A DNA stretch of 64,000 nucleotides, taken from IMG/VR virus record IMGVR_UViG_3300032241_002220, positions 25,376 to 89,375 of that record; one strand, 5' to 3'. Below are positions 25,203 to 56,540 of the stretch, piece by piece. Position 1 is the first letter of the stretch; the number at the start of each line of letters is the position of its first letter. The notes beneath the pieces were generated by a model. The model did not search any database and had not been told where the DNA came from. It saw only the letters and a list, made by a program, of their open reading frames with translations. Both the position numbers and the translations under genes were made by a program. The stretch is from a virus (lineage: Duplodnaviria; Heunggongvirae; Uroviricota; Caudoviricetes).

Positions 25203-25597
25203 AAGAACAATTTGTTACATACGAAATAGCTATAATCTTAAAAGAAAAAGGGTTTAATGAAGATTGTTTAGGTGTATATATCGATAAAGAATTAACTATA
25301 GGTTTACCGGAAACTACATTAAATGTAATTACTAAATATTATGATATTCTTGAAAAAGAAGAATATTTATTAGCTCCATTATGGCAACAAGCAATTGATT
25401 GGTTTAGAGAAAAACATCGTTTTATTATAACTATAGATTTTTTAAACAAACAAGAATCATTACACCCTAACGATCCAGAATGGACATCAGAATTATATAA
25501 TATGGATAACTTTCATTATATCATAGCTGAATACGATAGATACTCATACGAAGACGCAAGACAAGTAACTATTGAACATGCCTTAACATTGATTTAA
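25199..25597 (+). CDS. hypothetical protein
   Basis: 132 aa ORF. Confidence 0.45.
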   Translation: MKEQFVTYEIAIILKEKGFNEDCLGVYIDKELTIGLPETTLNVITKYYDILEKEEYLLAPLWQQAIDWFREKHRFIITIDFLNKQESLHPNDPEWTSELYNMDNFHYIIAEYDRYSYEDARQVTIEHALTLI

Positions 25598-30711: not shown

Positions 30712-30877
30712 AGTCAGGTGGCGGAATGTTAGACGCTATTAATCTTTGTTTTTAGTTCAGACGGATAGGCAAACGTAACATAAGACAGTGGAATATATTC
30801 TAGGATACGAAAGCCAAAGTTACTAGACAAACTGTTAAAAAAAATCTGAACGTGTGGGTTCAAGTCCCACCAGAATG
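30712..30877 (+). ncRNA. tRNA-like element (class II tRNA 5' acceptor/D-arm ... T-arm) with about 110-nt intervening sequence; not a foldable tRNA
   Basis: AGTCAGGTGGCGGAATGTTAGACGC is a canonical Leu/Ser-type acceptor + D-arm. GTGGGTTCAAGTCCCAC is a canonical T-arm 140 nt downstream. No 3' strand complementary to the acceptor. Confidence 0.3.
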
Positions 30878-34523: not shown

Positions 34524-34605
34524 TAGTCAGGTGGTGGAATTGGATAGACACAACCTCGCTCGGAGGTATAAGCGCAAACTTACAGGTTCGAATCCTGTCC
34601 TGACT
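34524..34605 (+). ncRNA. tRNA-like gene (class II architecture) with defective anticodon arm
   Basis: Acceptor AGTCAGG/CCTGACT is perfect. D-arm GTG..CAC. Variable hairpin TAAGCGCAAACTTA. T-arm ACAGGTTCGAATCCTGT. The anticodon stem ACCTC/GAGGT encloses only 5 nt (GCTCG). Confidence 0.4.
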
Positions 34606-34714
34606 ACAGATACTCTAACAGGCGCCAACCTGTCCCTATGGCGGGGCTAAGTAGAGTCAGTATTTTAAAACATAAAAATCAAAAAATAGGGCCTTTGTTT
34701 TTTATTATAATACG

Positions 34715-35413: not shown

Positions 35414-35737
35414 ATGAAAAAACTTATACTAATACCGTTATTGGCTTTATATTCCAGTATTCAAGCCCAGTGTGTGGTTGCTTTACCAACGGCTTTTACG
35501 CCAAATAAAGATGGTTTAAATGATACTTTTAAAGCCATTGGAAGTGGTTATATAGTTCACGATTTTATTATCTTTAACCGTTGGGGAAACAAGGTGTTTG
35601 AATCAACAAACAATATGGGTTGGAATGGTGTAACCAATGGAATAGAACAAGATCCGGGTGTATATATGTACTATCTAGTGTATGATTGTAATGGTGAGGA
35701 AAAATATATAAAGTCAACAGTAAATCTAATTCGATAA
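35414..35737 (+). CDS. secreted protein with T9SS/gliding-motility C-terminal sorting domain
   Basis: 107 aa. Signal peptide. FTPNKDGLNDTF...IFNRWGNKVFEST...WNG matches the Bacteroidetes type-B CTD motif. Confidence 0.55.
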   Translation: MKKLILIPLLALYSSIQAQCVVALPTAFTPNKDGLNDTFKAIGSGYIVHDFIIFNRWGNKVFESTNNMGWNGVTNGIEQDPGVYMYYLVYDCNGEEKYIKSTVNLIR

Positions 35738-37083: not shown

Positions 37084-37136
37084 AAATGTGTGGAGGAGCG
37101 AAAGCTCCTTCGTATATTTACATAAATAAAAAGCTT
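37084..37136 (+). promoter_or_regulatory. promoter: TGTGG + GGAGGAGC-GAAA-GCTCCTTC hairpin + TATATTTACATAAATAAAAAGCTT
   Basis: GNRA-loop hairpin in the spacer. ATG 37137. Confidence 0.55.
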
Positions 37137-37919
37137 ATGAAAAATTTAAATTTTATTCCACTTAACAACGATGTGAACAAATTAATTGCTTTTACACCTT
37201 CATTAGATGGTGGATGGCGGAAAAACCAAAGGATTGAATCTAAACCTTTTTATACTGAAACATTGGATGTTGTAAAAATGTTACAAAAGGAAGGATGGAG
37301 AGTAGATGGTTCGTATGAAAATAGAAATAAAGCATCTCGTAAAATAGGTAAACATTGTGTTCGTTTATCTCATCCTGATTTAGGAATAAAAATTCAGGGT
37401 AAAAATGAAGGTTTTGCTAGTATGTACTTAACTAATAGCTGTAATGGTTCATCTCCATTAAATATGGATTTTGGAATGTATCGCCAAGTTTGTTCAAATG
37501 GTTTAGTTGTTAAAGATATTTATGCTGATTCAAAAATCAAACATACTGAAAAAGATTATAATCGTTTACCTCAAATTATTGCAGGTTTGGAATCTAAGAT
37601 TCAACCTATGTTTCGAAAATTTGAACATTTAAAAAATGTTACTTTAACAGATAAACAAATGAGAGATCTTGCTAAAGAAGCATCACTTATTCGTTTTGAA
37701 CAAGATCATAAAATCAATACAGATCAATTGCTTAGTGTTCGTCGTGTTGAAGATGAAGGAAACAATCTATGGGCTGTTTATAATCGCATACAAGAAAATT
37801 TAACACAGCCTAATATGTTAATAGATGAAAAAGGTAATTTAATTAGTGATATATCTAATCCGTTAGTTGACATTAGTATTAATCAAGGTTTATACGATCT
37901 TGTTGAAGCTTATGCATAG
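37137..37919 (+). CDS. hypothetical protein, paralog A (DUF932-like?)
   Basis: Start placed after the conserved promoter (track ORF 37086 runs through it). Shares LTNSxxG...F..VC.NGLV with the next gene. Confidence 0.5.
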   Translation: MKNLNFIPLNNDVNKLIAFTPSLDGGWRKNQRIESKPFYTETLDVVKMLQKEGWRVDGSYENRNKASRKIGKHCVRLSHPDLGIKIQGKNEGFASMYLTNSCNGSSPLNMDFGMYRQVCSNGLVVKDIYADSKIKHTEKDYNRLPQIIAGLESKIQPMFRKFEHLKNVTLTDKQMRDLAKEASLIRFEQDHKINTDQLLSVRRVEDEGNNLWAVYNRIQENLTQPNMLIDEKGNLISDISNPLVDISINQGLYDLVEAYA

Positions 37920-38003: not shown

Positions 38004-38804
38004 ATGTTAAACTTAAACAATTCAGAATTCTTAAATCAAGAACAAATCCGCAAAATCGCTCCAAGCGTATTTACAAAACAAGGTTCAGATACTACCTCAG
38101 AAAAGTATGCTCATATTCCCACTAATCGTATTATCGAAGATATGGAAACCTTGGGTTGGGGTGTTGTTGATGCTAAAGAGGTTAAAGCTCGTAGGCAAAT
38201 AGGATACCAAAAACATTTGGTTGTATTTCGCAATAACGATATTGTTATCGAAGGTTCAGATAATGATACTGTTTATCCTCAAATCTTGTTAACCAATAGC
38301 CATGATGGTAAAAATGCTTTTACTTTCACAGCTGGTTTGTTTCGTATGGTTTGTGAAAATGGTTTGGTTATATCCAGCCAAGAATTCAACGATATGAAGA
38401 TTCGTCACTATGGTTATGATTTTGAAACTCTTCAAAACACAATCAAAGAAATGGTTGAAAAATTGCCTTTGACAGTTGAATCGATGAACAAATTTAAGCA
38501 AACTGAGCTTGATCAAGAAGCTGCTTTGGATTTTGCTAAACGAGCTGTTGGATGTCGTTTTAGTGAAGAAGAAATTGAAAATGTTAAAATCAATTGGGAA
38601 GATTTGTTAACACCAACCCGCGTTGAAGATAAAGGAAACGATCTTTGGAGTGTGTTTAATGTAGTTCAAGAAAAATTAGTTCACGGTATGTTCAATTATA
38701 CCTACGGTAATAAACACCGTAAAGCTCGTAAAATCAAAAACTTCAAACAAGATATGGTTTTGAACGAGAAATTGTATGATTTGGCTTTAGAATACGCTAA
38801 CTAA
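38004..38804 (+). CDS. hypothetical protein, paralog B (DUF932-like?)
   Basis: 266 aa. LLTNSHDGKNAFTFTAGLFRMVCENGLV parallels paralog A. Promoter upstream, terminator downstream. Confidence 0.5.
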   Translation: MLNLNNSEFLNQEQIRKIAPSVFTKQGSDTTSEKYAHIPTNRIIEDMETLGWGVVDAKEVKARRQIGYQKHLVVFRNNDIVIEGSDNDTVYPQILLTNSHDGKNAFTFTAGLFRMVCENGLVISSQEFNDMKIRHYGYDFETLQNTIKEMVEKLPLTVESMNKFKQTELDQEAALDFAKRAVGCRFSEEEIENVKINWEDLLTPTRVEDKGNDLWSVFNVVQEKLVHGMFNYTYGNKHRKARKIKNFKQDMVLNEKLYDLALEYAN

Positions 38805-38846: not shown

Positions 38847-39311
38847 ATGAACATTCAAAGAATTACACCCGAAGAAGCTCAACAATATATTAGTTGCAAA
38901 GACGATTTGTTAGGTTACCCTTCAGAATTTTATACTTTGACTCCTTCAATCGAACTGGGTTGGGAAGATGTTACATATTATACCGCTAGAAAGAAAAATA
39001 TGGTTAATCGTGAAGGAGAAGGTAAATATTGGATTTACGTTTTATCTAACGATTCCGTGCCTAATATGATTAAAATTGGATACACGAAGCAATCGCCCGA
39101 AGAACGCGCAAATCAATTATCTGCTGCCACAGGTGTTGCTACTCCATTTAAAGTTGAATATGTTTTTAAATGCCATGAAGGTGAATTTTTAGAATCTGAG
39201 GTGCATAAACATTTAGATGCGTATCGTGTTAGTAACAATAGGGAGTTTTTTACTATTAGTGTAAAAGAAGCACAAGAAATTATTGAAGAACTTGGAAAAA
39301 AATACATTTAA
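38847..39311 (+). CDS. GIY-YIG-like (T5orf172/MUG113-type) domain protein
   Basis: WIYVLSN...IKIGYT...ERANQL...PFKV pattern. Confidence 0.45.
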   Translation: MNIQRITPEEAQQYISCKDDLLGYPSEFYTLTPSIELGWEDVTYYTARKKNMVNREGEGKYWIYVLSNDSVPNMIKIGYTKQSPEERANQLSAATGVATPFKVEYVFKCHEGEFLESEVHKHLDAYRVSNNREFFTISVKEAQEIIEELGKKYI

Positions 39312-40947: not shown

Positions 40948-40993
40948 GAATCGACTGGGTTAAAGGGCGGGTTCGACTCCCGCCCCGATTCCA
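40948..40993 (+). ncRNA. tRNA-like minihelix (acceptor + T-arm only) resembling the tmRNA 3' domain
   Basis: GAATCG-ACTGGGTTAAAG-GGGCGGG TTCGACT CCCGCCC-CGATTC-CA. Same T-loop TTCGACT as the tmRNA at 48426. 13 bp coaxial stem. Sits between two genes. Confidence 0.4.
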
Positions 40994-42029: not shown

Positions 42030-42102
42030 GGTGCCTAAGCTAATCTGGTGAAAGCGCTAGACTGAAAATCTAGAGAGATAGGGTCGAAACCTATAGGTAC
42101 CA
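42030..42102 (+). tRNA. tRNA-Phe (GAA)
   Basis: Acceptor GGTGCCT/AGGTACC. Anticodon stem CTAGA/TCTAG with loop CTGAAAA. Confidence 0.75.
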
Positions 42103-42506: not shown

Positions 42507-42560
42507 ATGTTTGGCTACCTAAAAAAACAGTCGTACATTTAAGTATAAGAAGATCTTTGA
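42507..42560 (+). promoter_or_regulatory. tRNA-array internal promoter (TTTGGCTACCTAAAAAAACAGTCGTACATTTAAGTATAAGAAG)
   Basis: Same -33/-7 architecture, 20 nt 5' of tRNA-Pro. Confidence 0.55.
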
Positions 42561-43571: not shown

Positions 43572-43644
43572 GGACTTGTAGCTCAGAGGCAGAGCAGGCG
43601 GCTGTTAACCGTCAGGTCGGTGATTTCGAAATTCCCCAAGTCCG
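43572..43644 (+). tRNA. tRNA-Asn (GTT), degenerate T-arm
   Basis: Acceptor GGACTTG/CAAGTCC is perfect. D-arm GCTC..GAGC. Anticodon loop CTGTTAA. T-stem pairs poorly (GGTGA TTTCGAA ATTCC). Confidence 0.55.
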
Positions 43645-43651
43645 CAAAATT

Positions 43652-43740
43652 GAGAGTAAGGTAACTATTGGTTGGTTATCAACGGCTGTAACCCGTCAGG
43701 CCCAGAAAGGGGGTAGGTTCGATTCCTACTACTCTCACCA
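43652..43740 (+). tRNA. tRNA-Tyr (GTA), class II, CCA encoded
   Basis: Acceptor GAGAGTA/TACTCTC followed by A-CCA. Anticodon loop CTGTAAC. Variable arm CCCAGAAAGGG. T-arm GTAGGTTCGATTCCTAC. Confidence 0.75.
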
Positions 43741-43761
43741 AAATAAAAAAACTTCTTAAAA

Positions 43762-43820
43762 AGAGGTTGGCTTATAGAAATCTTGTTCGTATATTTAGGT
43801 ATAAGAAAAAAGATAAGAAG
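43762..43820 (+). promoter_or_regulatory. tRNA-array internal promoter (TTGGCTTATAGAAATCTTGTTCGTATATTTAGGTATAAGAAAAAAGATAAGAAG)
   Basis: After tRNA-Tyr, before the second tRNA sub-cluster. Confidence 0.5.
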
Positions 43821-43835
43821 CTCTTTGAAAATATT

Positions 43836-43910
43836 GAAACTGTGGTAATAAGTTGAGTTACTTCGTATGGCTTATATAAAATGAACTCACTTAAGCATTC
43901 CCGGTTAAAA
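43836..43910 (+). repeat. conserved hairpin element copy 1 (GTAATAAGTTGAGTTACTTCGT ... AACTCACTTAAGC)
   Basis: A near-identical 22-nt arm recurs at 44622. Stem AAGTTGAGTT/AACTCACTT. Confidence 0.5.
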
Positions 43911-43941
43911 TCATTTAGGTGGTTAATTAGAAAGTTACTTC

Positions 43942-44015
43942 GCACGAATAGTTCAATGGTTGAACATTTTCATATCCAGAAAAAGTAACGGGTTCAATTC
44001 CCGTTTCATGCCCCA
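43942..44015 (+). tRNA. tRNA-like gene with non-standard anticodon loop ATATCCA (anticodon ATC?), CCA encoded
   Basis: Acceptor GCACGAA/TTCATGC (one C-A mismatch) + C-CCA. Canonical D-arm TAGTTCAATGGTTGAAC. Anticodon stem TTTTC/GAAAA. T-arm ACGGGTTCAATTCCCGT. Confidence 0.45.
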
Positions 44016-44067
44016 AAAAAACTTTCTTAAACATTCCCCTAAACTTATTTGATGAATAGTAAGGACC

Positions 44068-44145
44068 AGCGTTACTTCGCGTGCAAGGTGCACATTTAAA
44101 TTTGGCTTTTAAAAATCGCGGTTCAATTCCGCCTGAAACGCTACC
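44068..44145 (+). ncRNA. degenerate tRNA-like element ending in ACCA
   Basis: T-arm GCGGTTCAATTCCGC and a terminal ...GAAACGCTACCA. 5' AGCGTTA pairs with AAACGCT, but the D/anticodon region (GTGCAAGGTGCAC hairpin) does not fold as a tRNA. Confidence 0.3.
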
Positions 44146-44168
44146 AATGTTCTTTCATCATTTTTTAT

Positions 44169-44241
44169 GTTCCTGAGGACAAAATGGTTGAGTCGTCACC
44201 CTTTCAAGGTGAAGGAGCGGGATCGTTACCCGTCAGGAATA
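44169..44241 (+). tRNA. tRNA-Glu (TTC)
   Basis: Acceptor GTTCCTG/CAGGAAT (one G-U). Anticodon stem TCACC/GGTGA, loop CTTTCAA. T-arm GCGGGATCGTTACCCGT. Confidence 0.7.
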
Positions 44242-44247
44242 CAACAA

Positions 44248-44318
44248 GGTCTATTAGTGAATTGGTATCATATCTCACTGTCTATGAGAAGTGCTCGGAT
44301 CGTAACCGTGATAGACCG
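44248..44318 (+). tRNA. tRNA-Asp (GTC)
   Basis: Acceptor GGTCTAT/ATAGACC. Anticodon stem TCTCA/TGAGA, loop CTGTCTA. T-loop ATCGTAA. Confidence 0.7.
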
Positions 44319-44327
44319 CCAACAAAT

Positions 44328-44400
44328 GCTTCTATAGCTCAATGGTCAGAGCAGGACGCTTATATCGTCAAGGCTACAGGTTCGAGTCCTGTTAGAAGTA
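44328..44400 (+). tRNA. tRNA-Ile (TAT) (AUA-reading, UAU anticodon)
   Basis: Acceptor GCTTCTA/TAGAAGT. D-arm GCTC AATGGTCA GAGC. Anticodon loop CTTATAT with U33 and A37. T-arm ACAGGTTCGAGTCCTGT. Confidence 0.65.
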
Positions 44401-44417
44401 CTAAAAACAAAAATAAA

Positions 44418-44609
44418 ATGAAAAAAATAGTAATCTACAAAGATGTAGAAAATGTAAACGGTAAAAAAGAACGTCATATTCTTCGTTCAATCCAGCCTAG
44501 TTATGATTGGCAAGGATATGCGAAAAATAAAAACAGTATGATAGATTCTGAAGTTAGGAATTTAGCACGTGCTTTAGAACCTAGTTTTACAGGATTCTAT
44601 GTAGCATAA
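44418..44609 (+). CDS. hypothetical small protein
   Basis: MKKIVIYKDVENVNGKK... The track ORF 44184..44609 starts inside tRNA genes, so it is trimmed to the first ATG after tRNA-Ile(TAT). Confidence 0.4.
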   Translation: MKKIVIYKDVENVNGKKERHILRSIQPSYDWQGYAKNKNSMIDSEVRNLARALEPSFTGFYVA

Positions 44610-44621
44610 AGATATTTGCTG

Positions 44622-44690
44622 TAGTAATAAGTTGAGTTACTTCGTCTGACTTTTTAATTCATAAATGAAAAAACAACTCACTTAAACTTT
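44622..44690 (+). repeat. conserved hairpin element copy 2 (GTAATAAGTTGAGTTACTTCGT ... AACTCACTTAAAC)
   Basis: Second copy, upstream of the tRNA-Met/Thr/Arg/Leu sub-cluster. Confidence 0.5.
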
Positions 44691-44712
44691 CTCAGTAAAC
44701 TTATTTTAAAAT

Positions 44713-44787
44713 TGTGGGATGCGTAGAAAATGGTTATCTCGTCAGTCTCATAAGCTGAAGTTCCCGGTTCAAGTCCGGGTCCCGCAA
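44713..44787 (+). tRNA. tRNA-Met (CAT)
   Basis: Acceptor TGTGGGA/TCCCGCA (one G-U). Anticodon stem TCAGT/GCTGA, loop CTCATAA. T-arm CCCGGTTCAAGTCCGGG. Confidence 0.7.
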
Positions 44788-44911
44788 CATAAGTCCTTGA
44801 TCAGGAACCGAAGATATGGTCGGCCTCTTGTGTAAACAATGCACACTGCTACCATCTAAACCGTAGGTTAGCACAGTTCACAACTCTGGGGATATTTTAA
44901 AAGTTGTATTT

Positions 44912-44986
44912 GGACGCATAGTTTAGTTGGAAAAACACTTGCCTTGTAAGCATGAGTTCTCGGGTCGGTTCCGGGTGTGTCCTCCA
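44912..44986 (+). tRNA. tRNA-Thr (TGT), CCA encoded, unusual T-loop
   Basis: Acceptor GGACGCA/TGTGTCC + T-CCA. Anticodon loop CTTGTAA (stem has one U-U). T-arm CTCGG GTCGGTT CCGGG. Confidence 0.6.
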
Positions 44987-44991
44987 CGCAT

Positions 44992-45064
44992 GGTTCTATC
45001 GTTCAATGGATTAGGACAATTGCCTTCTAAGCAATTTATGCTGGTTCGAATCCAGCTAGAACTA
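44992..45064 (+). tRNA. tRNA-Arg (TCT)
   Basis: Acceptor GGTTCTA/TAGAACT. Anticodon stem ATTGC/GCAAT, loop CTTCTAA. T-arm GCTGGTTCGAATCCAGC. Confidence 0.85.
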
Positions 45065-45070
45065 CAACCC

Positions 45071-45152
45071 GCTCCGATGGTGTAATTGGCAGCCACGCTA
45101 GACTTAGGATCTAGTGTCGTAAGACGTAAGGGTTCGAGTCCCTTTTGGAGCA
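45071..45152 (+). tRNA. tRNA-Leu (TAG), class II
   Basis: Acceptor GCTCCGA/TTGGAGC. Anticodon stem CTAGA/TCTAG, loop CTTAGGA. Variable hairpin GTCGTAAGACG. T-arm AAGGGTTCGAGTCCCTT. Confidence 0.8.
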
Positions 45153-45162
45153 CTTAACAAAA

Positions 45163-45248
45163 TATTTGGCTAAGCAAAAAATTGGTCTTATATTTACGAC
45201 ATAATAAAGCAATTAAAAATTCTCTAACAATAAAAAATTAGTAGTAAA
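45163..45248 (+). promoter_or_regulatory. promoter for the Ro60-like gene (TTTGGCTAAGCAAAAAATTGGTCTTATATTTACGACATAATAAAG)
   Basis: ATG 45249. Confidence 0.5.
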
Positions 45249-46790
45249 ATGGCACGTTACAATTCAAAAGCAACAACAGTTACTCCAACAGTAACAAACC
45301 ACCAAGGTGGAACAGGGTACAAATACGACCCAAAAACAGAATTAATCTCAATATTAGCAACAGGCTTGGATAACAAGTATTATGAAAAAGTAGGTGAACG
45401 TGAACAACGTTTGGCCAAAGTCATAGAAGAAGTAGCTAAAAAAGACAAACTATTTGCTGCAAAAGCTCTAGTGTATGCTCGTACCGTAATGGGACAAAGA
45501 ACAGTAACACACTTTGGTGCTGTAGAATTAGCTAAAGTATTAGGAGGTGATTCTCTAGGTTCTCGTTTCTTTTCAAAGCGTGAACGTAAACAAAACAAAG
45601 GTGGTATTATCTTCCGTTTGGATGATATGCTTGAAATTGCTGCTTGTTATCAAGCACGTAATGAAGGTAAACCATTTTCAAATGCAATCAAGAAAGGTTT
45701 TAAATCCGCTCTTGAATCAGCAGATGAATATGAATTAGCTAAATATCAAGCTAAAAATCGCGATTTATCTTTAGTTGACATCGTTAACTTAGTACACCCA
45801 AAACCATCACCAAGAATGGCTCCAGTGTTTGCTAAATTGATGAAAGGTGAACTTAAACAGTTTAATACTGTAGAAGATAAAAATACTAAAGCTGGTCAAG
45901 AAGTTGCTGCTAAAGTAAAAGAAGGTAAAATTACTAAAGAAGAAGCAGCAGTTGAATTAGCGCAAGCTAAAGAAGACAACTATGCCGAATTGATTAAAAC
46001 ACGTAAAATCGGTTATTTAGCTTTATTACGTAATTTACGCAATATTCTAAAAACAGGTGCCGATAAAGAAATTATAAACGGTGCTTGTGAACTATTAACT
46101 GATCAAAAGTTAATTAAACAATCTTTAGTGTTTCCACACCAAATAGATTTAGCATTAGAAATAATGTTGGATGAATTTGGTTCAAGTAAAGTTAAACCAT
46201 TTGTTAAAGCATTAAACACCGCTTACGAACTAGCGATACCAAACCTAACAGAATTATTTCCAAATGGCCGCACAGCGGTTGTATTTGACAGTTCAGGTTC
46301 AATGTCAACATCTATTAGTTTAGCTAATAAAAATAATGGTTCAGAATCAGCCATTTCAAAAGCAGCATTAATTGCCGCTACTTTAGCTAAAGGTATTGAA
46401 GCCGATGTTTATCACTTTGCTGATCGTTGTGATGAAATCAAGTTTAACCCACTTGATACAGTTAACACACTTAAGAATCAATTTTTAAATAAACAAGGTT
46501 CAGTTGGTTATGGTACTGCCTTTGCCAGTATTATGAAAAAATTAGGTGATCAATATGACCGTGTGTTTGTAATATCGGATATGCAAGGTAGTGATTATCT
46601 TGAAAGAGCTAATTACAAAAATCTTCACATATATTCAATCGATATTGCCGGTTATGGTACAACAATGTTCAAACCAGGAAACAAAGTTTATTCATTGTTT
46701 GGTTATTCTGCCGATATTTATGAATTGATAAAGAAAGTGGAAATCGATCCAAAAGCGTTAATCGCCGAAATCGAAGCAATAGAAATTTAA
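45249..46790 (+). CDS. rsr: Ro60-like TROVE domain + vWA domain RNA-binding protein
   Basis: 513 aa. N-terminal QGGTGYKYDPKTELISILATGLDNKYYE resembles the TROVE signature. C-terminal TAVVFDSSGSMS is a vWA MIDAS DxSxS. Domain order as in Ro60/Rsr. Confidence 0.6.
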   Translation: MARYNSKATTVTPTVTNHQGGTGYKYDPKTELISILATGLDNKYYEKVGEREQRLAKVIEEVAKKDKLFAAKALVYARTVMGQRTVTHFGAVELAKVLGGDSLGSRFFSKRERKQNKGGIIFRLDDMLEIAACYQARNEGKPFSNAIKKGFKSALESADEYELAKYQAKNRDLSLVDIVNLVHPKPSPRMAPVFAKLMKGELKQFNTVEDKNTKAGQEVAAKVKEGKITKEEAAVELAQAKEDNYAELIKTRKIGYLALLRNLRNILKTGADKEIINGACELLTDQKLIKQSLVFPHQIDLALEIMLDEFGSSKVKPFVKALNTAYELAIPNLTELFPNGRTAVVFDSSGSMSTSISLANKNNGSESAISKAALIAATLAKGIEADVYHFADRCDEIKFNPLDTVNTLKNQFLNKQGSVGYGTAFASIMKKLGDQYDRVFVISDMQGSDYLERANYKNLHIYSIDIAGYGTTMFKPGNKVYSLFGYSADIYELIKKVEIDPKALIAEIEAIEI

Positions 46791-46813
46791 AATTTTCCAA
46801 TAAAGTAAAATGA

Positions 46814-46838
46814 CTGGGTGTTTCTACACCCGGTTTTT
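46814..46838 (+). terminator. rho-independent terminator after the Ro60-like gene
   Basis: CTGGGTG-tttcta-CACCCGG + TTTTT. Confidence 0.65.
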
Positions 46839-47035
46839 ATTTAAAGTTCTTTGAAATATTATACTATAGTAAGGGTTTGTGAGGTACTTCGTATTTATAA
46901 ACTAGCTTAGAAATAAGCATTTTAATTATACACATATCAGATAAAAACCTCGTACTAGGTGCCTCTTGAAAATAACCAACAACAAGAGCAAATAAGTACA
47001 AACTCACCCCAGTAATCTTAGTATATTTTTTTTTT

Positions 47036-47120
47036 GCCTGGGTGTCGTAAAGGTAGCCGAGGTGGACTTAAAATCCACTGAACTGTAAGGTTCGTGCGGG
47101 TTCGATTCCCGCTCCAGGTA
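47036..47120 (+). tRNA. tRNA-Leu (TAA), class II
   Basis: Anticodon stem GTGGA/TCCAC, loop CTTAAAA. Variable hairpin GAACTGTAAGGTTC. T-arm GCGGGTTCGATTCCCGC. Acceptor GCCTGGG/TCCAGGT has G-U at both ends. Confidence 0.75.
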
Positions 47121-47122
47121 CT

Positions 47123-47584
47123 ATGAAAAAAGCAATTTATCTAGACGACGTCAGAACACCAATCAATGGTGATGTTGAATGGATTGTGGTTAGAAATTAT
47201 AATGAATTTGTATCTAAAGTTCAAGAAATTGGATTGGAAAATATTGATGTAATTTCTTTAGATCATGATCTTGGGGATAGTGCTATGAATGAATATTTTA
47301 AAAATGTTGCTCCTAATTATACTTTGGATTACAATAATATTACCGAAAAAACGGGATATGATTGTGCAAAATGGTTAGTTGAATATTTTTATATAAAAAA
47401 TCCTAATTGGAAATATAAAAGTAGAGATGTTAAACAAGGAAGTCTATTTCGATTTCCAAAAGTATTTACCCATTCAGCTAATCCTATAGGTTCAGCTAAT
47501 ATTATGGGTTATATAAATAATTTTTTAATGAATGAAGTTCAAAGCCAAACCTGTGTAAGAGTTCAAATTCAACACACAATTTAA
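47123..47584 (+). CDS. hypothetical protein
   Basis: 153 aa. ATG 3 nt after tRNA-Leu(TAA). Confidence 0.5.
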   Translation: MKKAIYLDDVRTPINGDVEWIVVRNYNEFVSKVQEIGLENIDVISLDHDLGDSAMNEYFKNVAPNYTLDYNNITEKTGYDCAKWLVEYFYIKNPNWKYKSRDVKQGSLFRFPKVFTHSANPIGSANIMGYINNFLMNEVQSQTCVRVQIQHTI

Positions 47585-47595
47585 AAATTTATGAA

Positions 47596-48051
47596 ATGAA
47601 ACAGTTTAAAACATTAAGCGCTCATAGAAAAGTCGACTTAATACCATACATAAGAGAATATGTTGCTAATCATCCAGAAACAGAAGTTTTAATTGGTTGT
47701 GACTCTCAAAACAGAAAAAAAGAAACTGTTTATGCTATTGTGGTAGGTTTATATACACCTGGAAAAGGCGCTCACGTTTTGTATTCTAAATTTTTTATTC
47801 AACGTGAACGAGATAACGTAGTTCGTTTATTAAACGAAGTATGGAATTCTGTTGAAACCGCAGAACAAATTAAAAATGAAATAGGAATAAAAGCAACTTG
47901 GATTGATATTGACTTAAACCCAGATCCAAAATATCGTTCAAACCAAGCACTGGCGAGTGCAGTTGGTGTTGTAACAGGTATGGGTTATAATGTAAGACAT
48001 AAAGGTAATTCACCTGTTATGACTTATGCAGCAGATCATCTTGTTAAATAA
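47596..48051 (+). CDS. hypothetical protein
   Basis: 151 aa. Stop 2 nt before the tmRNA 5' end. Confidence 0.5.
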   Translation: MKQFKTLSAHRKVDLIPYIREYVANHPETEVLIGCDSQNRKKETVYAIVVGLYTPGKGAHVLYSKFFIQRERDNVVRLLNEVWNSVETAEQIKNEIGIKATWIDIDLNPDPKYRSNQALASAVGVVTGMGYNVRHKGNSPVMTYAADHLVK

Positions 48052-48052
48052 C

Positions 48053-48448
48053 GGGGTCGACCGGTTTTGACAGCAATTGAAGTAGAGAAAGATGATGCAG
48101 GCAGTGTTAGTATTGGAAACACTTAAATAACCTATACAAACAATAAACGCAAACGTAGAATTATCTACTTGGACAATCGAAGATGCTTTGGCATTTGTAG
48201 ATGGTGAATTCGCACTAGCTGCCTAGTTCACCCAGGGGCTTCACACACGCGCCTTGCAACAGAAGTGTATTTAAAAAGGAACTAAGAGGCTTACCTTTTC
48301 AAAAAAGAGTACTCGGTAGGTTTTCAGTCCCAATCGTCCGAGAAGCGGAACTGGTATTTTGTCTAGTTAGAAAACGAGACTAAGCCTGTGAATGAGTCGA
48401 TTTAGACTTATTGTTTGGACGGGAGTTCGACTCTCCCCGACTCCACAA
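48053..48448 (+). ncRNA. ssrA: tmRNA (ssrA)
   Basis: 5' GGGGTCG pairs with 3' CGACTCC-A. The 3' tRNA-like domain GGACGGGAGTTCGACTCTCCCCGACTCCAC matches the tmRNA TLD consensus. Internal reading frame 48149-48226 encodes ANVELSTWTIEDALAFVDGEFALAA then TAG, the characteristic ...ALAA-stop tag. No overlapping CDS on either strand. Confidence 0.8.
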
Positions 48449-48452
48449 ATTA

Positions 48453-48481
48453 ACACCAACATTTCTGTTGGTGTTTTTTTA
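48453..48481 (+). terminator. rho-independent terminator after tmRNA
   Basis: ACACCAACA-tttc-TGTTGGTGT + TTTTTTT. Confidence 0.8.
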
Positions 48482-48504
48482 TCTTTATTATATATTTATA
48501 TATA

Positions 48505-53908: not shown

Positions 53909-54268
53909 ATGGACACAAAACAATTTAAAAAAATCATCAAAGAAGCGGTAAAAGAAGTATTTCAAGAAGAAATGCGTGAAATATTGCTAGAAGCTGTAAA
54001 AGCACCTAAAGCAACTATTGTTACTGAAAGTACTAACACCAGTGGTAATAATAGTATGTTACAAACAGGTACATCAACCAAAACATTAACCGCGGCTGAA
54101 CGTAAAGCAATGTTTGGTGGAATGCTTGAAGAAATGCAAAATGGAACTTTATCAGCAACAAGCAACAATATACCTTTTAGACCCGTACCTGGTAGAGACA
54201 CCACAAGTGGCGCTTTACCTCCAGGCGAAGTTGATTTTAGTCAAATAATGGGATTAATGAGTAAATAA
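53909..54268 (+). CDS. hypothetical structural-module protein
   Basis: 119 aa. Confidence 0.45.
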   Translation: MDTKQFKKIIKEAVKEVFQEEMREILLEAVKAPKATIVTESTNTSGNNSMLQTGTSTKTLTAAERKAMFGGMLEEMQNGTLSATSNNIPFRPVPGRDTTSGALPPGEVDFSQIMGLMSK

Positions 54269-54675
54269 TGGCATTCGGAGCGAAAAAAATATTTCCAATA
54301 GATACTAAACCGGGAACTGCGGTTGGAGTATCTATTCCTTTTAATGCCCCTGCTGTATTTTATTCAACATATTTTACTAAGGATGCTATTAGAAATAATT
54401 TATTGAATTTTTTTCTAACTAATCAACCTGAAAGATATTTAAATCCAACATTTGGTGCTAATTTAAGAGCATTCATATTCCAACAAATTACTGATGGTAA
54501 TTTAGAGGGATTAAAAGAAAATGTACAATCGCAACTAGCAACTTATTTTCCAAATGTTATAGTAGCATCCTTGGATATTTTACAAGACCCTGATGATAAT
54601 ACTATTACTATGGTTTTAAAATATAATATAGCAGATACCGGTATAACAGATCAATTACAAATTTCATTTCAATAA
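54268..54675 (+). CDS. baseplate wedge protein, gp25/GPW-like
   Basis: 135 aa. PERYLNPTFGANLRAFIFQ matches the gp25-family ERxxxPxFGxxL..LIFEP motif. Confidence 0.7.
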   Translation: MAFGAKKIFPIDTKPGTAVGVSIPFNAPAVFYSTYFTKDAIRNNLLNFFLTNQPERYLNPTFGANLRAFIFQQITDGNLEGLKENVQSQLATYFPNVIVASLDILQDPDDNTITMVLKYNIADTGITDQLQISFQ

Positions 54676-56540
54676 TGGCTACTACTAATACAGCAAAAAA
54701 CATAACCTATATAAATAAAGACTTTACCGAGTTAAGGGCAAGTTTGATAGATTATGCTAAAACATATTTTCCAACAACTTACAATGACTTTACACCAGCT
54801 TCACCTGGTATGATGTTTATTGAAATGGCAGCTTATGTAGGTGATATCTTATCATTTTATTTAGATAATCAATTCCAGGAAAACTATTTACAATATGCTC
54901 GCCAAACAAATAATTTATTTGAATTGGCTTATATGTTTGGTTATAGACCAAATGTAACTCAAGTAGCGACTACTGAAATTACTTTTTATCAACAAGTACC
55001 TGCTATTTTATCGGGCTCAGTTTATGTTCCCGATTATAGTTATGCTTTATTTATCCCAGCAAATACAACTGTAAGTTCAACTTTAACTAATATACCAACA
55101 TTTTTAGTAGAAGATCCTGTTGATTTTACTGTTTCATCTTCACAAGATCCTACAGTAGCAACAGTATATACTGTATCTGGTGGTAATCCCACATATTATT
55201 TATTAACTAAAACTAGAAAATCAATATCGGCTACTATTAATACTACAACATTTAGTTTTGGAGCTCCGGTTCAATTTTCGACAGTTAATATAAATTCTCC
55301 TCAAATCATTGATATATTAGATATATTCGATTCTAATGGTAACCAATGGTATGAAGTAGATTATTTAGGACAAGAAATGGTTTATACACCTATTAAAAAC
55401 ACAAATCCTAATGATCCTAATTATTATAAAGACCAAGGTAATGCCCCTTATCTTTTAAAATTAGAAAAACAACAACGCAGATTTGCAACTAAATTTATAA
55501 ACTCAGGATCACTACAAATCCAGTTTGGTGCTGGTATAGCAAATGATACTGATGAAAATATAACCCCTAATCCAAATAATGTTGGTATAGGTTTACCTTT
55601 TGAAAAAACAAAATTAACTACAGCTTATTCACCTTCAAATTTCCTATTTACAGGAACTTATGGTATTGCTCCTTCAAATACAACTTTAACAGTTAGATAT
55701 TTGACAGGAGGTGGTGTTGCCTCAAATGTTCAATCTAATGTTTTAAATACATTAAATACTAATCCTACATTTTTAAACGCCAATTTAAATCTAACTACAG
55801 CCAACGCTGTTTTTAATTCATTAGCCGTTACAAATTTAATAGCTGCTGATGGTGGTGGTGATGGAGATACAGTAGACGAAATTAGACAAAATGCAATGGC
55901 TAATTTTGCCTCTCAATTACGTAATGTAACCCAAGACGATTATTTAGTAAGAGCATTATCTATGCCAGCCAAATATGGTGTTGTAGCTAAAGCATATATT
56001 GAATCTACAAAACGCACTTTAGTATCTGAAGGTGAATCTAATTCAGTTTTAGATTTATATATCTTAAGTTATGATGCTAATAAAAATTTACAAACAGCAT
56101 CTAATGCTTTAAAACAAAACCTAACAACATATTTAAGCCAATACAGAATGATTGGTGATGCTGTTAATATTAAAGATGGTTTTGTTATTAATATTGGTGT
56201 AAATTTTGAAATAATAGTATTACCTAATTACAACAATAATGACGTTTTAATTAGATGTATAGCGGCTTTACAAACATATTTTTCAATAGATCAATGGTCT
56301 ATTAATCAACCTATTTTATTGAGAGATTTATATGTTTTATTAGATCAAATACAAGGAGTTCAAACAGTAAAAAACATAACAATAACAAATTTAGTTGGAA
56401 CTAATTTAGGATATAGCCCATATGCTTATGATATTAACGCGGCTACTTCAAACGAGGTAATCTATCCTTCACTTGATCCTTCTATCTTTGAAGTTAAATA
56501 TTTAAATCAAGATATTCAAGGTAAAGTAGTACCATTATAA
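54675..56540 (+). CDS. baseplate J-like (gp6-like) protein
   Basis: 621 aa. Immediately follows the gp25-like gene, as in T4-like baseplate cassettes. Confidence 0.5.
   Translation: MATTNTAKNITYINKDFTELRASLIDYAKTYFPTTYNDFTPASPGMMFIEMAAYVGDILSFYLDNQFQENYLQYARQTNNLFELAYMFGYRPNVTQVATTEITFYQQVPAILSGSVYVPDYSYALFIPANTTVSSTLTNIPTFLVEDPVDFTVSSSQDPTVATVYTVSGGNPTYYLLTKTRKSISATINTTTFSFGAPVQFSTVNINSPQIIDILDIFDSNGNQWYEVDYLGQEMVYTPIKNTNPNDPNYYKDQGNAPYLLKLEKQQRRFATKFINSGSLQIQFGAGIANDTDENITPNPNNVGIGLPFEKTKLTTAYSPSNFLFTGTYGIAPSNTTLTVRYLTGGGVASNVQSNVLNTLNTNPTFLNANLNLTTANAVFNSLAVTNLIAADGGGDGDTVDEIRQNAMANFASQLRNVTQDDYLVRALSMPAKYGVVAKAYIESTKRTLVSEGESNSVLDLYILSYDANKNLQTASNALKQNLTTYLSQYRMIGDAVNIKDGFVINIGVNFEIIVLPNYNNNDVLIRCIAALQTYFSIDQWSINQPILLRDLYVLLDQIQGVQTVKNITITNLVGTNLGYSPYAYDINAATSNEVIYPSLDPSIFEVKYLNQDIQGKVVPL

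Follow-up and report, generated by a model that had tools for sequence, protein, structure and literature searches.

Ro60 proteins and their Y RNAs occur from bacteria to humans, and Ro60 is a major autoantigen. The stem of metazoan Y RNAs, such as hY1 and Xenopus Y3, is composed of a lower stem, a bulged pyrimidine, two pairs, an asymmetric loop, and an upper stem. In bacteria, YrlA RNAs carry a GNCGAAN0-1G sequence near the 5' end, which has been proposed as the Rsr site, a YUAY sequence that opens the variable loop, and a permuted tRNA-like domain in which the T-arm is followed by a closed acceptor stem and the D-arm (PMC4201824). Among phages, the Ro60 complex of Thermus phage phiLo with host polynucleotide phosphorylase (PNPase) resembles the Ro60/Y RNA/PNPase complex, and the Caulobacter phage CcrColossus is cited as having Y-like RNAs (PMC12135203). 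Phage Ro60 proteins with Y RNAs are thus known already; what is new in the locus described here is a divergent, multi-copy, and modular version. The locus lies in a stretch of 64,000 nucleotides (nt) from a virus of the Caudoviricetes (positions 25,376 to 89,375 of IMG/VR record IMGVR_UViG_3300032241_002220), which we call the window at its full length, and consists of one open reading frame (ORF) and five RNA elements, designated A, A', B, C, and D. We consider it probable that the ORF encodes a phage Ro60/Rsr ring protein and that the five elements are its Y RNAs, which share one docking module. Related loci returned by our searches are cited by their L numbers.

The ORF and the signals on either side of it are located as follows.

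45166 to 45196, + strand: promoter-like motif TTGGCT-N17-CTTATATTTA upstream of the Ro60 gene, from motif enrichment
45249 to 46790, + strand: Ro60/Rsr homologue of 513 amino acids, an ORF starting with ATG, with TROVE and vWA domains and the MIDAS (adhesion site dependent on a metal ion) sequence DSSGSMS
46812 to 46845, + strand: terminator-like intrinsic hairpin (46812 to 46835) and the T-run that follows it, 3' of the Ro60 gene

An earlier note, made from the letters of this DNA, had described the 513-residue protein as a Ro60 homologue with a TROVE domain followed by a vWA domain, and profile searches bear this out. The Pfam TROVE profile (PF05731) matched the ORF with an E value of 1.8e-11 (44.3 bits against a cutoff of 23), and phrog_850 of PHROG, annotated as "RNA-binding protein," matched residues 9 to 505 (E 5e-34). 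The sole Pfam vWA match, to vWA-TerF-like, was weak (E 0.08), and a search of NCBIfam gave no match. The phiLo Ro60 (9KOP/9L5Y) aligned with the protein end to end (E 4e-18), placing DSSGSM of the ORF on DVSGSM of phiLo Ro60. When a profile of 11 homologues was compared with solved structures, it matched phiLo Ro60 (3e-36), Xenopus Ro60 (3e-13), human RO60 (3.5e-12), and Deinococcus Rsr (5e-10); judged by these profile scores, the phiLo protein is the closest solved relative. DSSGSMS occupies residues 347 to 353, and the MIDAS residues D347, S349, S351, T423, and D444 are invariant across the alignment of the 11 homologues. The closest phage protein in GenBank is 36% identical at most. By the profile and motif evidence, then, the ORF at 45249 to 46790 is a genuine Ro60/Rsr homologue and a new member of the family, and the full-length alignment to 9KOP predicts a closed ring fold with a central cavity, that is, a HEAT-repeat ring. 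The earlier note had placed the feature at 45249 to 46838; its start is correct, but the ORF stops at 46790, and the later end arose because the terminator hairpin and T-run had been included. A weak Rfam match to L20_leader at 46729 to 46847 (E ≤ 10) is the Ro60 terminator, and was rejected as chance.

Five predicted Y-RNA elements surround this gene. All are on the Ro60 strand and at most 1.4 kb from the gene, and the first three form an array that is preceded by a promoter-like motif.

43767 to 43797, + strand: promoter-like motif TTGGCT-N17-CGTATATTTA, 40 nt upstream of the array A-A'-B
43837 to 43907, + strand: predicted Y-RNA element A, with a 19-nt insert without tRNA-like features
43914 to 44043, + strand: predicted Y-RNA element A', with a 78-nt insert that is tRNA-shaped in normal order (43942 to 44015)
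44051 to 44159, + strand: predicted Y-RNA element B, with a 58-nt insert made up of a hairpin, an AU-rich arm, and the T-arm GCGGTTCAATTCCGC; a T-run comes after it
44616 to 44698, + strand: predicted Y-RNA element C, with a 31-nt insert
46861 to 47024, + strand: predicted Y-RNA element D, with a 110-nt insert and a 3-nt bulge in stem 2; ten T follow

The elements have a common scaffold. From the RNA ends inward, it is formed by an outer stem of 5 to 8 bp with one bulged U on the 5' strand, then by two pairs (RG with CY) and an internal loop (URA on the 5' side, about 6 nt ending in UU on the 3' side), and then by a second stem of 8 to 11 bp, sometimes with a 5' bulge, which leads to an invariant, single-stranded UACUUCG and a variable insert. 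The 5' blocks of the window copies read UGGUAA, UGGUUA, or UAGUAA, and all five copies have (U/G)UAC within the invariant UACUUCG. An intramolecular CGAAGUA partner for UACUUCG was looked for and none was seen. At the DNA level, five copies of the nonamer GKTACTTCG are found where 0.32 would be expected, and in 100 shuffles this count was never reached; every copy is on the + strand, within 43857 to 46891. The stems of elements A and C are identical, and element B has orthologues at L006 2057 and L008 2932. The position of element D, just 3' of the Ro60 stop codon, is kept in related phages whose Ro60 is 79 to 87% identical.

Viral contigs were searched for Ro60, which returned 27 loci encoding proteins 99% to 27% identical to that of the window. 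Most of these loci have TACTTCG on the Ro60 strand near the gene, and Ro60 loci at about 29% identity have three copies of it 200 to 500 nt upstream. For the covariation analysis, 37 scaffolds from phages and bacteria were freed of their inserts and aligned by segment with N padding. A MAFFT alignment of unpadded arms had misaligned the 3' halves, and the N-padded manual alignment was used instead; an unconstrained minimum-free-energy scan for 3' arms was dropped, as local hairpins dominated it. Across the 37 scaffolds, 89.3% of cells were paired, compared with 58.1% after shuffling, and 0 of 500 shuffles reached the observed level. The number of cells changed on both sides was 212, compared with 75.5 in the control, and the covariation score was 0.806, compared with 0.230 for shuffled and 0.08 to 0.23 for slid controls. 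Compensatory changes were found in all eight outer-helix pairs, with at least 17 different outer-helix sequences represented. In addition, RNAalifold recovered the outer stem, the bulge, the two pairs, and stem 2, with compensatory changes, from six full-length D-type orthologues. The scaffold is a conserved, covarying RNA structure.

Covariance models were then searched against the window. With model R1, elements A and C scored 36 and 35.2 bits, respectively. For model R2, only phages with a Ro60 no more than 59% identical to that of the window were used, and the model was run on both strands of the whole window at E ≤ 10. It returned exactly two matches there, A at 29.9 bits (E 1.8e-4) and C at 24.7 bits (E 3e-3). 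In Ro60 loci that had not entered the model it gave 15 further matches, each on the strand of the Ro60 gene and almost all of them immediately upstream of a bacterial rsr. Neither R1 nor R2 recovered A', B, or D, even with the filters off; because the models cannot bridge long inserts, these three elements rest on the motif and pairing analysis.

The scaffold RNA is linked to Ro60 genes in phages and bacteria. In the Ro60-anchored loci, the 5' signature was found 125 times on the gene strand and 4 times on the opposite strand; of the 125, 118 are no farther than 2.5 kb from the gene, and the most distant elements are 3.7 kb from it. The scaffold adjoins Ro60 genes only 27 to 37% identical to that of the window, including chromosomal rsr of Saprospiraceae. 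Chromosomal Ro60 genes (Saprospiraceae and other bacteria; 35 to 38% identical; contigs up to 660 kb) have one to three copies at most about 500 nt upstream. A tRNA array accompanies the scaffold in the bacterial loci L033, L034, and L061, and no tRNA gene is present in L040, L043, or L045. For the reverse test, the viral collection was scanned for GTAGTAA-N6-12-GTTACTTCG, and 119 stretches were returned. Within the short DNA returned, a TROVE gene was present in 27 of the 61 stretches with at least two copies and in 5 of the 58 with a single copy, many of the latter probably being chance matches. For two of the multi-copy stretches without TROVE, the Ro60 gene was found on a different stretch from the contig in question (L120/L142 and L134/L137).

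As a separate observation, arrays of 6 to 19 tRNA genes precede chromosomal rsr in L033, L034, L061, and L041 (Saprospiraceae; contigs up to 660 kb); unless prophages account for these regions, Ro60 is thus paired with tRNA arrays outside phages as well.

We compared the scaffold with the described Y RNA families. At gathering thresholds, Rfam reported no Y RNA in the window or in 16 related loci. The YrlA model (RF02553) gave 29 to 47 bits on related loci, below its gathering score of 69; on copies with a permuted tRNA-like insert it gave 47.1 bits (L036), 42.3 bits (CcrColossus), 35.5 bits (L019), and 35.3 bits (L005). In the alignment to L036, CgaAUG of the model falls on AGUAAG and CUAc of the model on UUAC of UACUUCG. 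Read through this alignment, URGURA is the local version of GNCGAA, and UAC of UACUUCG is YUAY. GGCGA itself is kept in few relatives (L017, L033, L052, and CcrColossus). The 5' block varies between Ro60 clades, being UAGUAA or UGGUAA in that of the window, UGGUGA in L019 to L027, UAGUGAG in Saprospiraceae, and UGGCG(U/C)AG in CcrColossus, and it is uniform per locus, as co-evolution with one protein partner would produce. The CcrColossus locus has the same layout, with five TACTTCG copies upstream of Ro60, the UGGCG(U/C)AG block on the 5' side, and GUUCCCC on the 3' side. Because of the covarying scaffold, the linkage to Ro60 genes, and the sub-threshold alignment to RF02553, comparison places elements A, A', B, C, and D as divergent YrlA-class Y RNAs that are multi-copy and modular.

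Several observations weigh against this reading. The earlier note had looked to Infernal searches with the Rfam Y RNA models, and these were negative: neither Y_RNA (RF00019) nor YrlA matched anything in 43600 to 48500, even at E ≤ 10. It was the comparison of related loci alone that brought out a Y-RNA identity. The folding z-scores are unremarkable (-0.8, -1.25, and -2.2), and because the folding energy is weak, the scaffold is argued from the comparative evidence. The canonical permuted tRNA-like domain is missing from every one of the five copies in the window, the insert of A' being in normal order and that of B having the T-arm only. The script used for the scaffold alignment maximises pairing, which makes the pair counts lean towards structure; three checks made independently of it (RNAalifold on the D-type elements, R2 on the window, and R2 on the further Ro60 loci) agree with the scaffold. 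The criterion of a matching 3' arm has a decoy rate of 32% and was not used as evidence alone. Finally, many of the viral stretches that bear the motif are tRNA arrays without TROVE in the short DNA returned, which does not cover whole contigs.

The earlier note had also listed five tRNA-like objects in the window as possible Ro60 ligands. All five exist, and those at 43942 and 44068 proved to be the inserts of A' and B, the latter lying in the element with the T-arm given above; those at 34524, 30712, and 40948 have neither the scaffold nor UACUUCG, and elements A, C, and D had been missed. The object at 34525 to 34607 is a weak type-II-like tRNA (36.8 bits; 83 nt, Glu CUC by ARAGORN). Its 5' half, without the rest, is repeated (AGTCAGGTGG(T/C)GGAAT) 3.8 kb upstream, at 30712 to 30740. 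The region at 40948 to 40993 consists of a T-arm, an acceptor 3' strand, and CCA (GGGCGGGTTCGACTCCCGCCCCGATTCCA); it resembles the 3' end of a transfer-messenger RNA (tmRNA) and corresponds to positions 347 to 363 of the tmRNA model. An SPFH/Band 7 gene directly precedes it, and it may represent a minihelix or what is left of an attachment site. The spacer at 44788 to 44911 (124 nt, with ACCGAAG) was considered as a canonical Y RNA and rejected, with a fold z-score of +0.5 and conservation only in near-identical relatives; it is relatively GC-rich and lies between tRNA(CAU) and tRNA-Thr.

The inserts carried by the scaffold differ widely. In a rough, motif-based classification of 306 non-redundant 5' signatures, 134 inserts had neither a T-loop nor a D-loop motif, 95 had a T-loop only, 35 had a D-loop followed by a T-loop (normal tRNA order), 25 had a T-loop followed by a D-loop (permuted, as in YrlA), and 17 were D-like only. 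Permuted inserts include L019 3565, L012 2538, and L005 423, and the closing loop of the acceptor stem in L012 2538 encodes G-CCA. ARAGORN called a tRNA starting 0 to 6 nt into UACUUCG in 40 of 396 signatures, and the highest-scoring scaffold-held tRNA reached 72.8 bits (L012 767 to 839). In the window, the insert of A' (43942 to 44015) was called as tRNA-Asp(AUC), and is a complete cloverleaf with an encoded CCA, a C4-A69 mismatch, and an anticodon that begins with A34. It scored 49 bits against an Rfam tRNA gathering score of 29. Of the two outcomes that the earlier note would have taken as refuting, the lack of a TROVE match did not occur; the other was that the tRNA-like objects are ordinary tRNAs, and this one, an insert within scaffold A', does score as a tRNA. 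Its orthologues have different anticodons (UUC and UCC in L004 and L006, AUC in the window), with the acceptor 4-69 mismatch conserved. Another set of orthologous tRNA-shaped inserts has the anticodons UAG and UGG, and some inserts are odd as tRNAs, such as Leu(UAG) and Ser(GCU) without a long variable arm. L024 2370 to 2500 and L026 1456 to 1586 are identical over about 130 nt except for the anticodon, GAU in one and UCU in the other, while the flanks are about 85% identical; the change appears confined to the three anticodon bases. Complete, normal-order tRNA tips with fast-changing anticodons are not described in the Y RNA literature cited here, and these chimeras of a tRNA in a Y stem with switching anticodons are the part of the system most worth following up.

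An alternative is that the scaffold is a processing or punctuation element of phage tRNA-array transcripts (a leader-trailer duplex to which an RNase or some other factor would respond) that is not bound by Ro60, with the Ro60 gene merely lying inside such arrays. Most multi-copy loci without TROVE in the returned stretch are indeed dense tRNA arrays (18 tRNAs in L081 and 17 in L087), about 10% of scaffolds enclose a full tRNA shape with its start within UACUUCG, at the point where cleavage by RNase P would fall, and the farthest elements are kilobases away from a Ro60 gene. However, the block of 15 tRNAs at 42.0 to 43.74 kb of the window contains no scaffold, and all five copies are found at 43.8 to 47.0 kb, around the Ro60 gene. 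Bacterial rsr loci without tRNA genes still have one to three copies directly upstream, elements A, C, and D hold nothing tRNA-like, and the layout fits known Ro60-binding stems, with RF02553 aligning to the scaffold. Taken together, we regard a punctuation element as unlikely, and favor Y RNAs of the neighboring Ro60. Even less can be said for the idea that A, C, and D arose by chance as AU-rich hairpins or terminators, the shared motif being a recent, functionless local duplication. The identical stems of A and C, the weak folding z-scores, and the T-runs after B and D would fit it, but dozens of loci in phages and bacteria repeat this architecture with stems that differ completely in sequence, the only window matches of the independent model R2 are A and C, and the position of D is retained, with its stems compensated, in the phages described above. 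By these comparative data, such an origin is for practical purposes refuted, and we hold it to be extremely improbable.

For A' taken by itself, the question is different, since 43942 to 44015 might be a working, decoding tRNA and the surrounding stem its precursor structure. Its score, complete cloverleaf, and encoded CCA are what a decoding tRNA would have, other scaffold-held tRNAs score higher still, and the difference between L024 and L026 in the anticodon alone implies selection on the anticodon, as for a real decoder. Against this, the anticodon AUC has A34, which to our knowledge is known in bacterial tRNAs only for tRNA-Arg(ACG), and a canonical tRNA-Asp(GUC) is present 230 nt downstream. 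The conserved acceptor mismatch, the varying anticodons of the orthologues, and the impossible identities among the scaffold "tRNAs," such as the Leu and Ser forms lacking a long variable arm, also speak against decoding. We consider a decoding role for A' possible but doubtful, and otherwise treat its insert as the tip of a Y RNA.

With the five elements taken as Y RNAs, a mechanism can be proposed. By analogy with the Xenopus, Deinococcus, and phiLo systems (PMC4201824, PMC12135203), the window protein would bind A, A', B, C, and D through their shared stem, on its outer surface. The insert at the tip may then tether Ro60 to other factors, the partner being PNPase in other systems, or may gate the central cavity. 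Tips shaped like tRNAs could recruit tRNA-binding enzymes, and five differing tips would give one Ro60 five partnerships. The RNAs themselves may be cut out of tRNA-array transcripts. Two genes that follow Ro60 and element D bear on a possible function.

47123 to 47584, + strand: cREC-domain gene (cyclic-phosphate-processing receiver; Pfam PF20274, E 1.6e-19)
47596 to 48051, + strand: RNaseH-like gene (Pfam PF04308, E 7.3e-18)

The cREC domain has been proposed to process 2',3'-cyclic phosphate RNA ends, a role in RNA repair (PMC7824862). A cREC gene is also found near Ro60 in L004, L005, and L009, and the RNaseH-like gene, directly 3' of Ro60 and element D, is kept in L004 to L010 and L014. 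Together with the tmRNA and the tRNA array, these neighbors suggest that the locus serves to repair RNA or to control its quality. A bolder extension would make the Y stem a portable Ro60-docking cassette on which phages and Bacteroidota present exchangeable inserts, among them complete tRNA-shaped RNAs with rapidly switching anticodons, and the tRNA look-alikes decoys, sensors, or repair handles against host anticodon nucleases, acting with cREC, the RNaseH-like protein, the tRNA array, and the tmRNA; this we put forward as a speculation that is rather unlikely to hold in full.

The wider context of the window is that of a phage, with baseplate gp25 and J genes at 54268 to 56540. A CHU_C type IX secretion (T9SS) domain is encoded at 35414 to 35737, and the nearest bacterial relatives of the window Ro60 are mostly from Saprospiraceae and other Bacteroidota; because of these two features, the sequence points to a host in the Bacteroidota. 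A search for near-identical DNA in GenBank phages matched only one tRNA. At gathering scores, Rfam reported 21 tRNAs and one tmRNA in the window, the latter at 48053 to 48448. The phage-specific, promoter-like motif TTGG-N19-TAYATTTA (that is, TTGG-N17-CGTAYATTTA) occurs at 27 sites on the + strand, compared with 4.1 expected. The sites span 2681 to 48498, examples being 42511 to 42541, 43767 to 43797, and 45166 to 45196, and they resemble the -33/-7 promoter type of Bacteroidota. TTGG-N17-(T)CGTAYATTTA is a putative promoter.

Further features of the region were recorded. Three tRNAs found by Rfam were missed by ARAGORN: 42030 to 42102 (57.6 bits), 44169 to 44241 (45.6 bits), and 44713 to 44787 (33.7 bits). 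By eye, 44169 to 44241 is a Glu(UUC) with an unusual T-loop, ATCGTTA, and 44713 to 44787 is a tRNA with a CAU anticodon, its start being about 7 nt farther upstream than the Rfam boundary. Two tandem DUF932 genes (37086 to 37919 and 38004 to 38804), followed by a T5orf172 (GIY-YIG-like) gene at 38847 to 39311, lie upstream of the tRNA region. In related phages, a group I intron (RF00028, 60.7 bits) lies at L005 2387 to 2586, within the tRNA/Y RNA region. GOLLD is a large RNA, and full-length copies (RF02032, 239 to 288 bits) are found among the Y elements, 0.1 to 1.7 kb upstream of Ro60, in four phage loci (L005 3491 to 3917, L011 2720 to 3134, L012 1913 to 2328, and L013 2489 to 2905); there is none in the window. 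This recurring neighborhood of GOLLD, Ro60, and Y RNA may be a lead.

With the simple signature URGURA-stem-UACUUCG, putative Y RNAs that Rfam misses at its thresholds can be found both in many large phages and in Bacteroidota. One locus with five such RNAs, which have a common stem and wholly different tips, fits the view of Y RNAs as modular tethers, and the locus and its neighbors offer concrete, testable material on what Ro60 does for a phage.

Compared with YrlA, the window elements are alike in being encoded on the same strand as Ro60/rsr, within a few kilobases of it, and often in more than one copy. The ends of the RNA likewise pair into a stem, a conserved purine-rich block lies on the 5' side with YUAY at the top, and many family members outside the window have the permuted tRNA-like domain. 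They differ from YrlA in having URGURA instead of GNCGAAN0-1G, in the extra invariant UUCG after UAC, in tips that are unstructured, a partial tRNA, or a normal-order tRNA and not permuted, and in numbering five per locus. The metazoan Y RNAs (1YVP, RF00019) have the same stem layout as the window scaffold, whereas the bulge in the window is U and not C, GGUCCGA is absent, and RF00019 found no match at E ≤ 10 in the region searched. The window RNAs are also putatively cut from polycistronic transcripts, whereas metazoan Y RNAs are made by RNA polymerase III.

The phiLo system is similar in that a phage Ro60 lies beside several phage-encoded Y-like RNAs (Yrl1 and Yrl2) (PMC12135203). It differs in having two Yrl RNAs, which were identified from CGAA within a large internal bulge, and in the phylum of its host, and a context of tRNA array, tmRNA, and cREC is not described for phiLo (PMC12135203). 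Bacillus phage G, CcrColossus, and mycobacteriophages resemble the window phage in having Ro60 among tRNA genes in large phage genomes. Proteins of GenBank phages are at most 36% identical to that of the window, whose host would be in the Bacteroidota. CcrColossus shares the UACUUCG scaffold.

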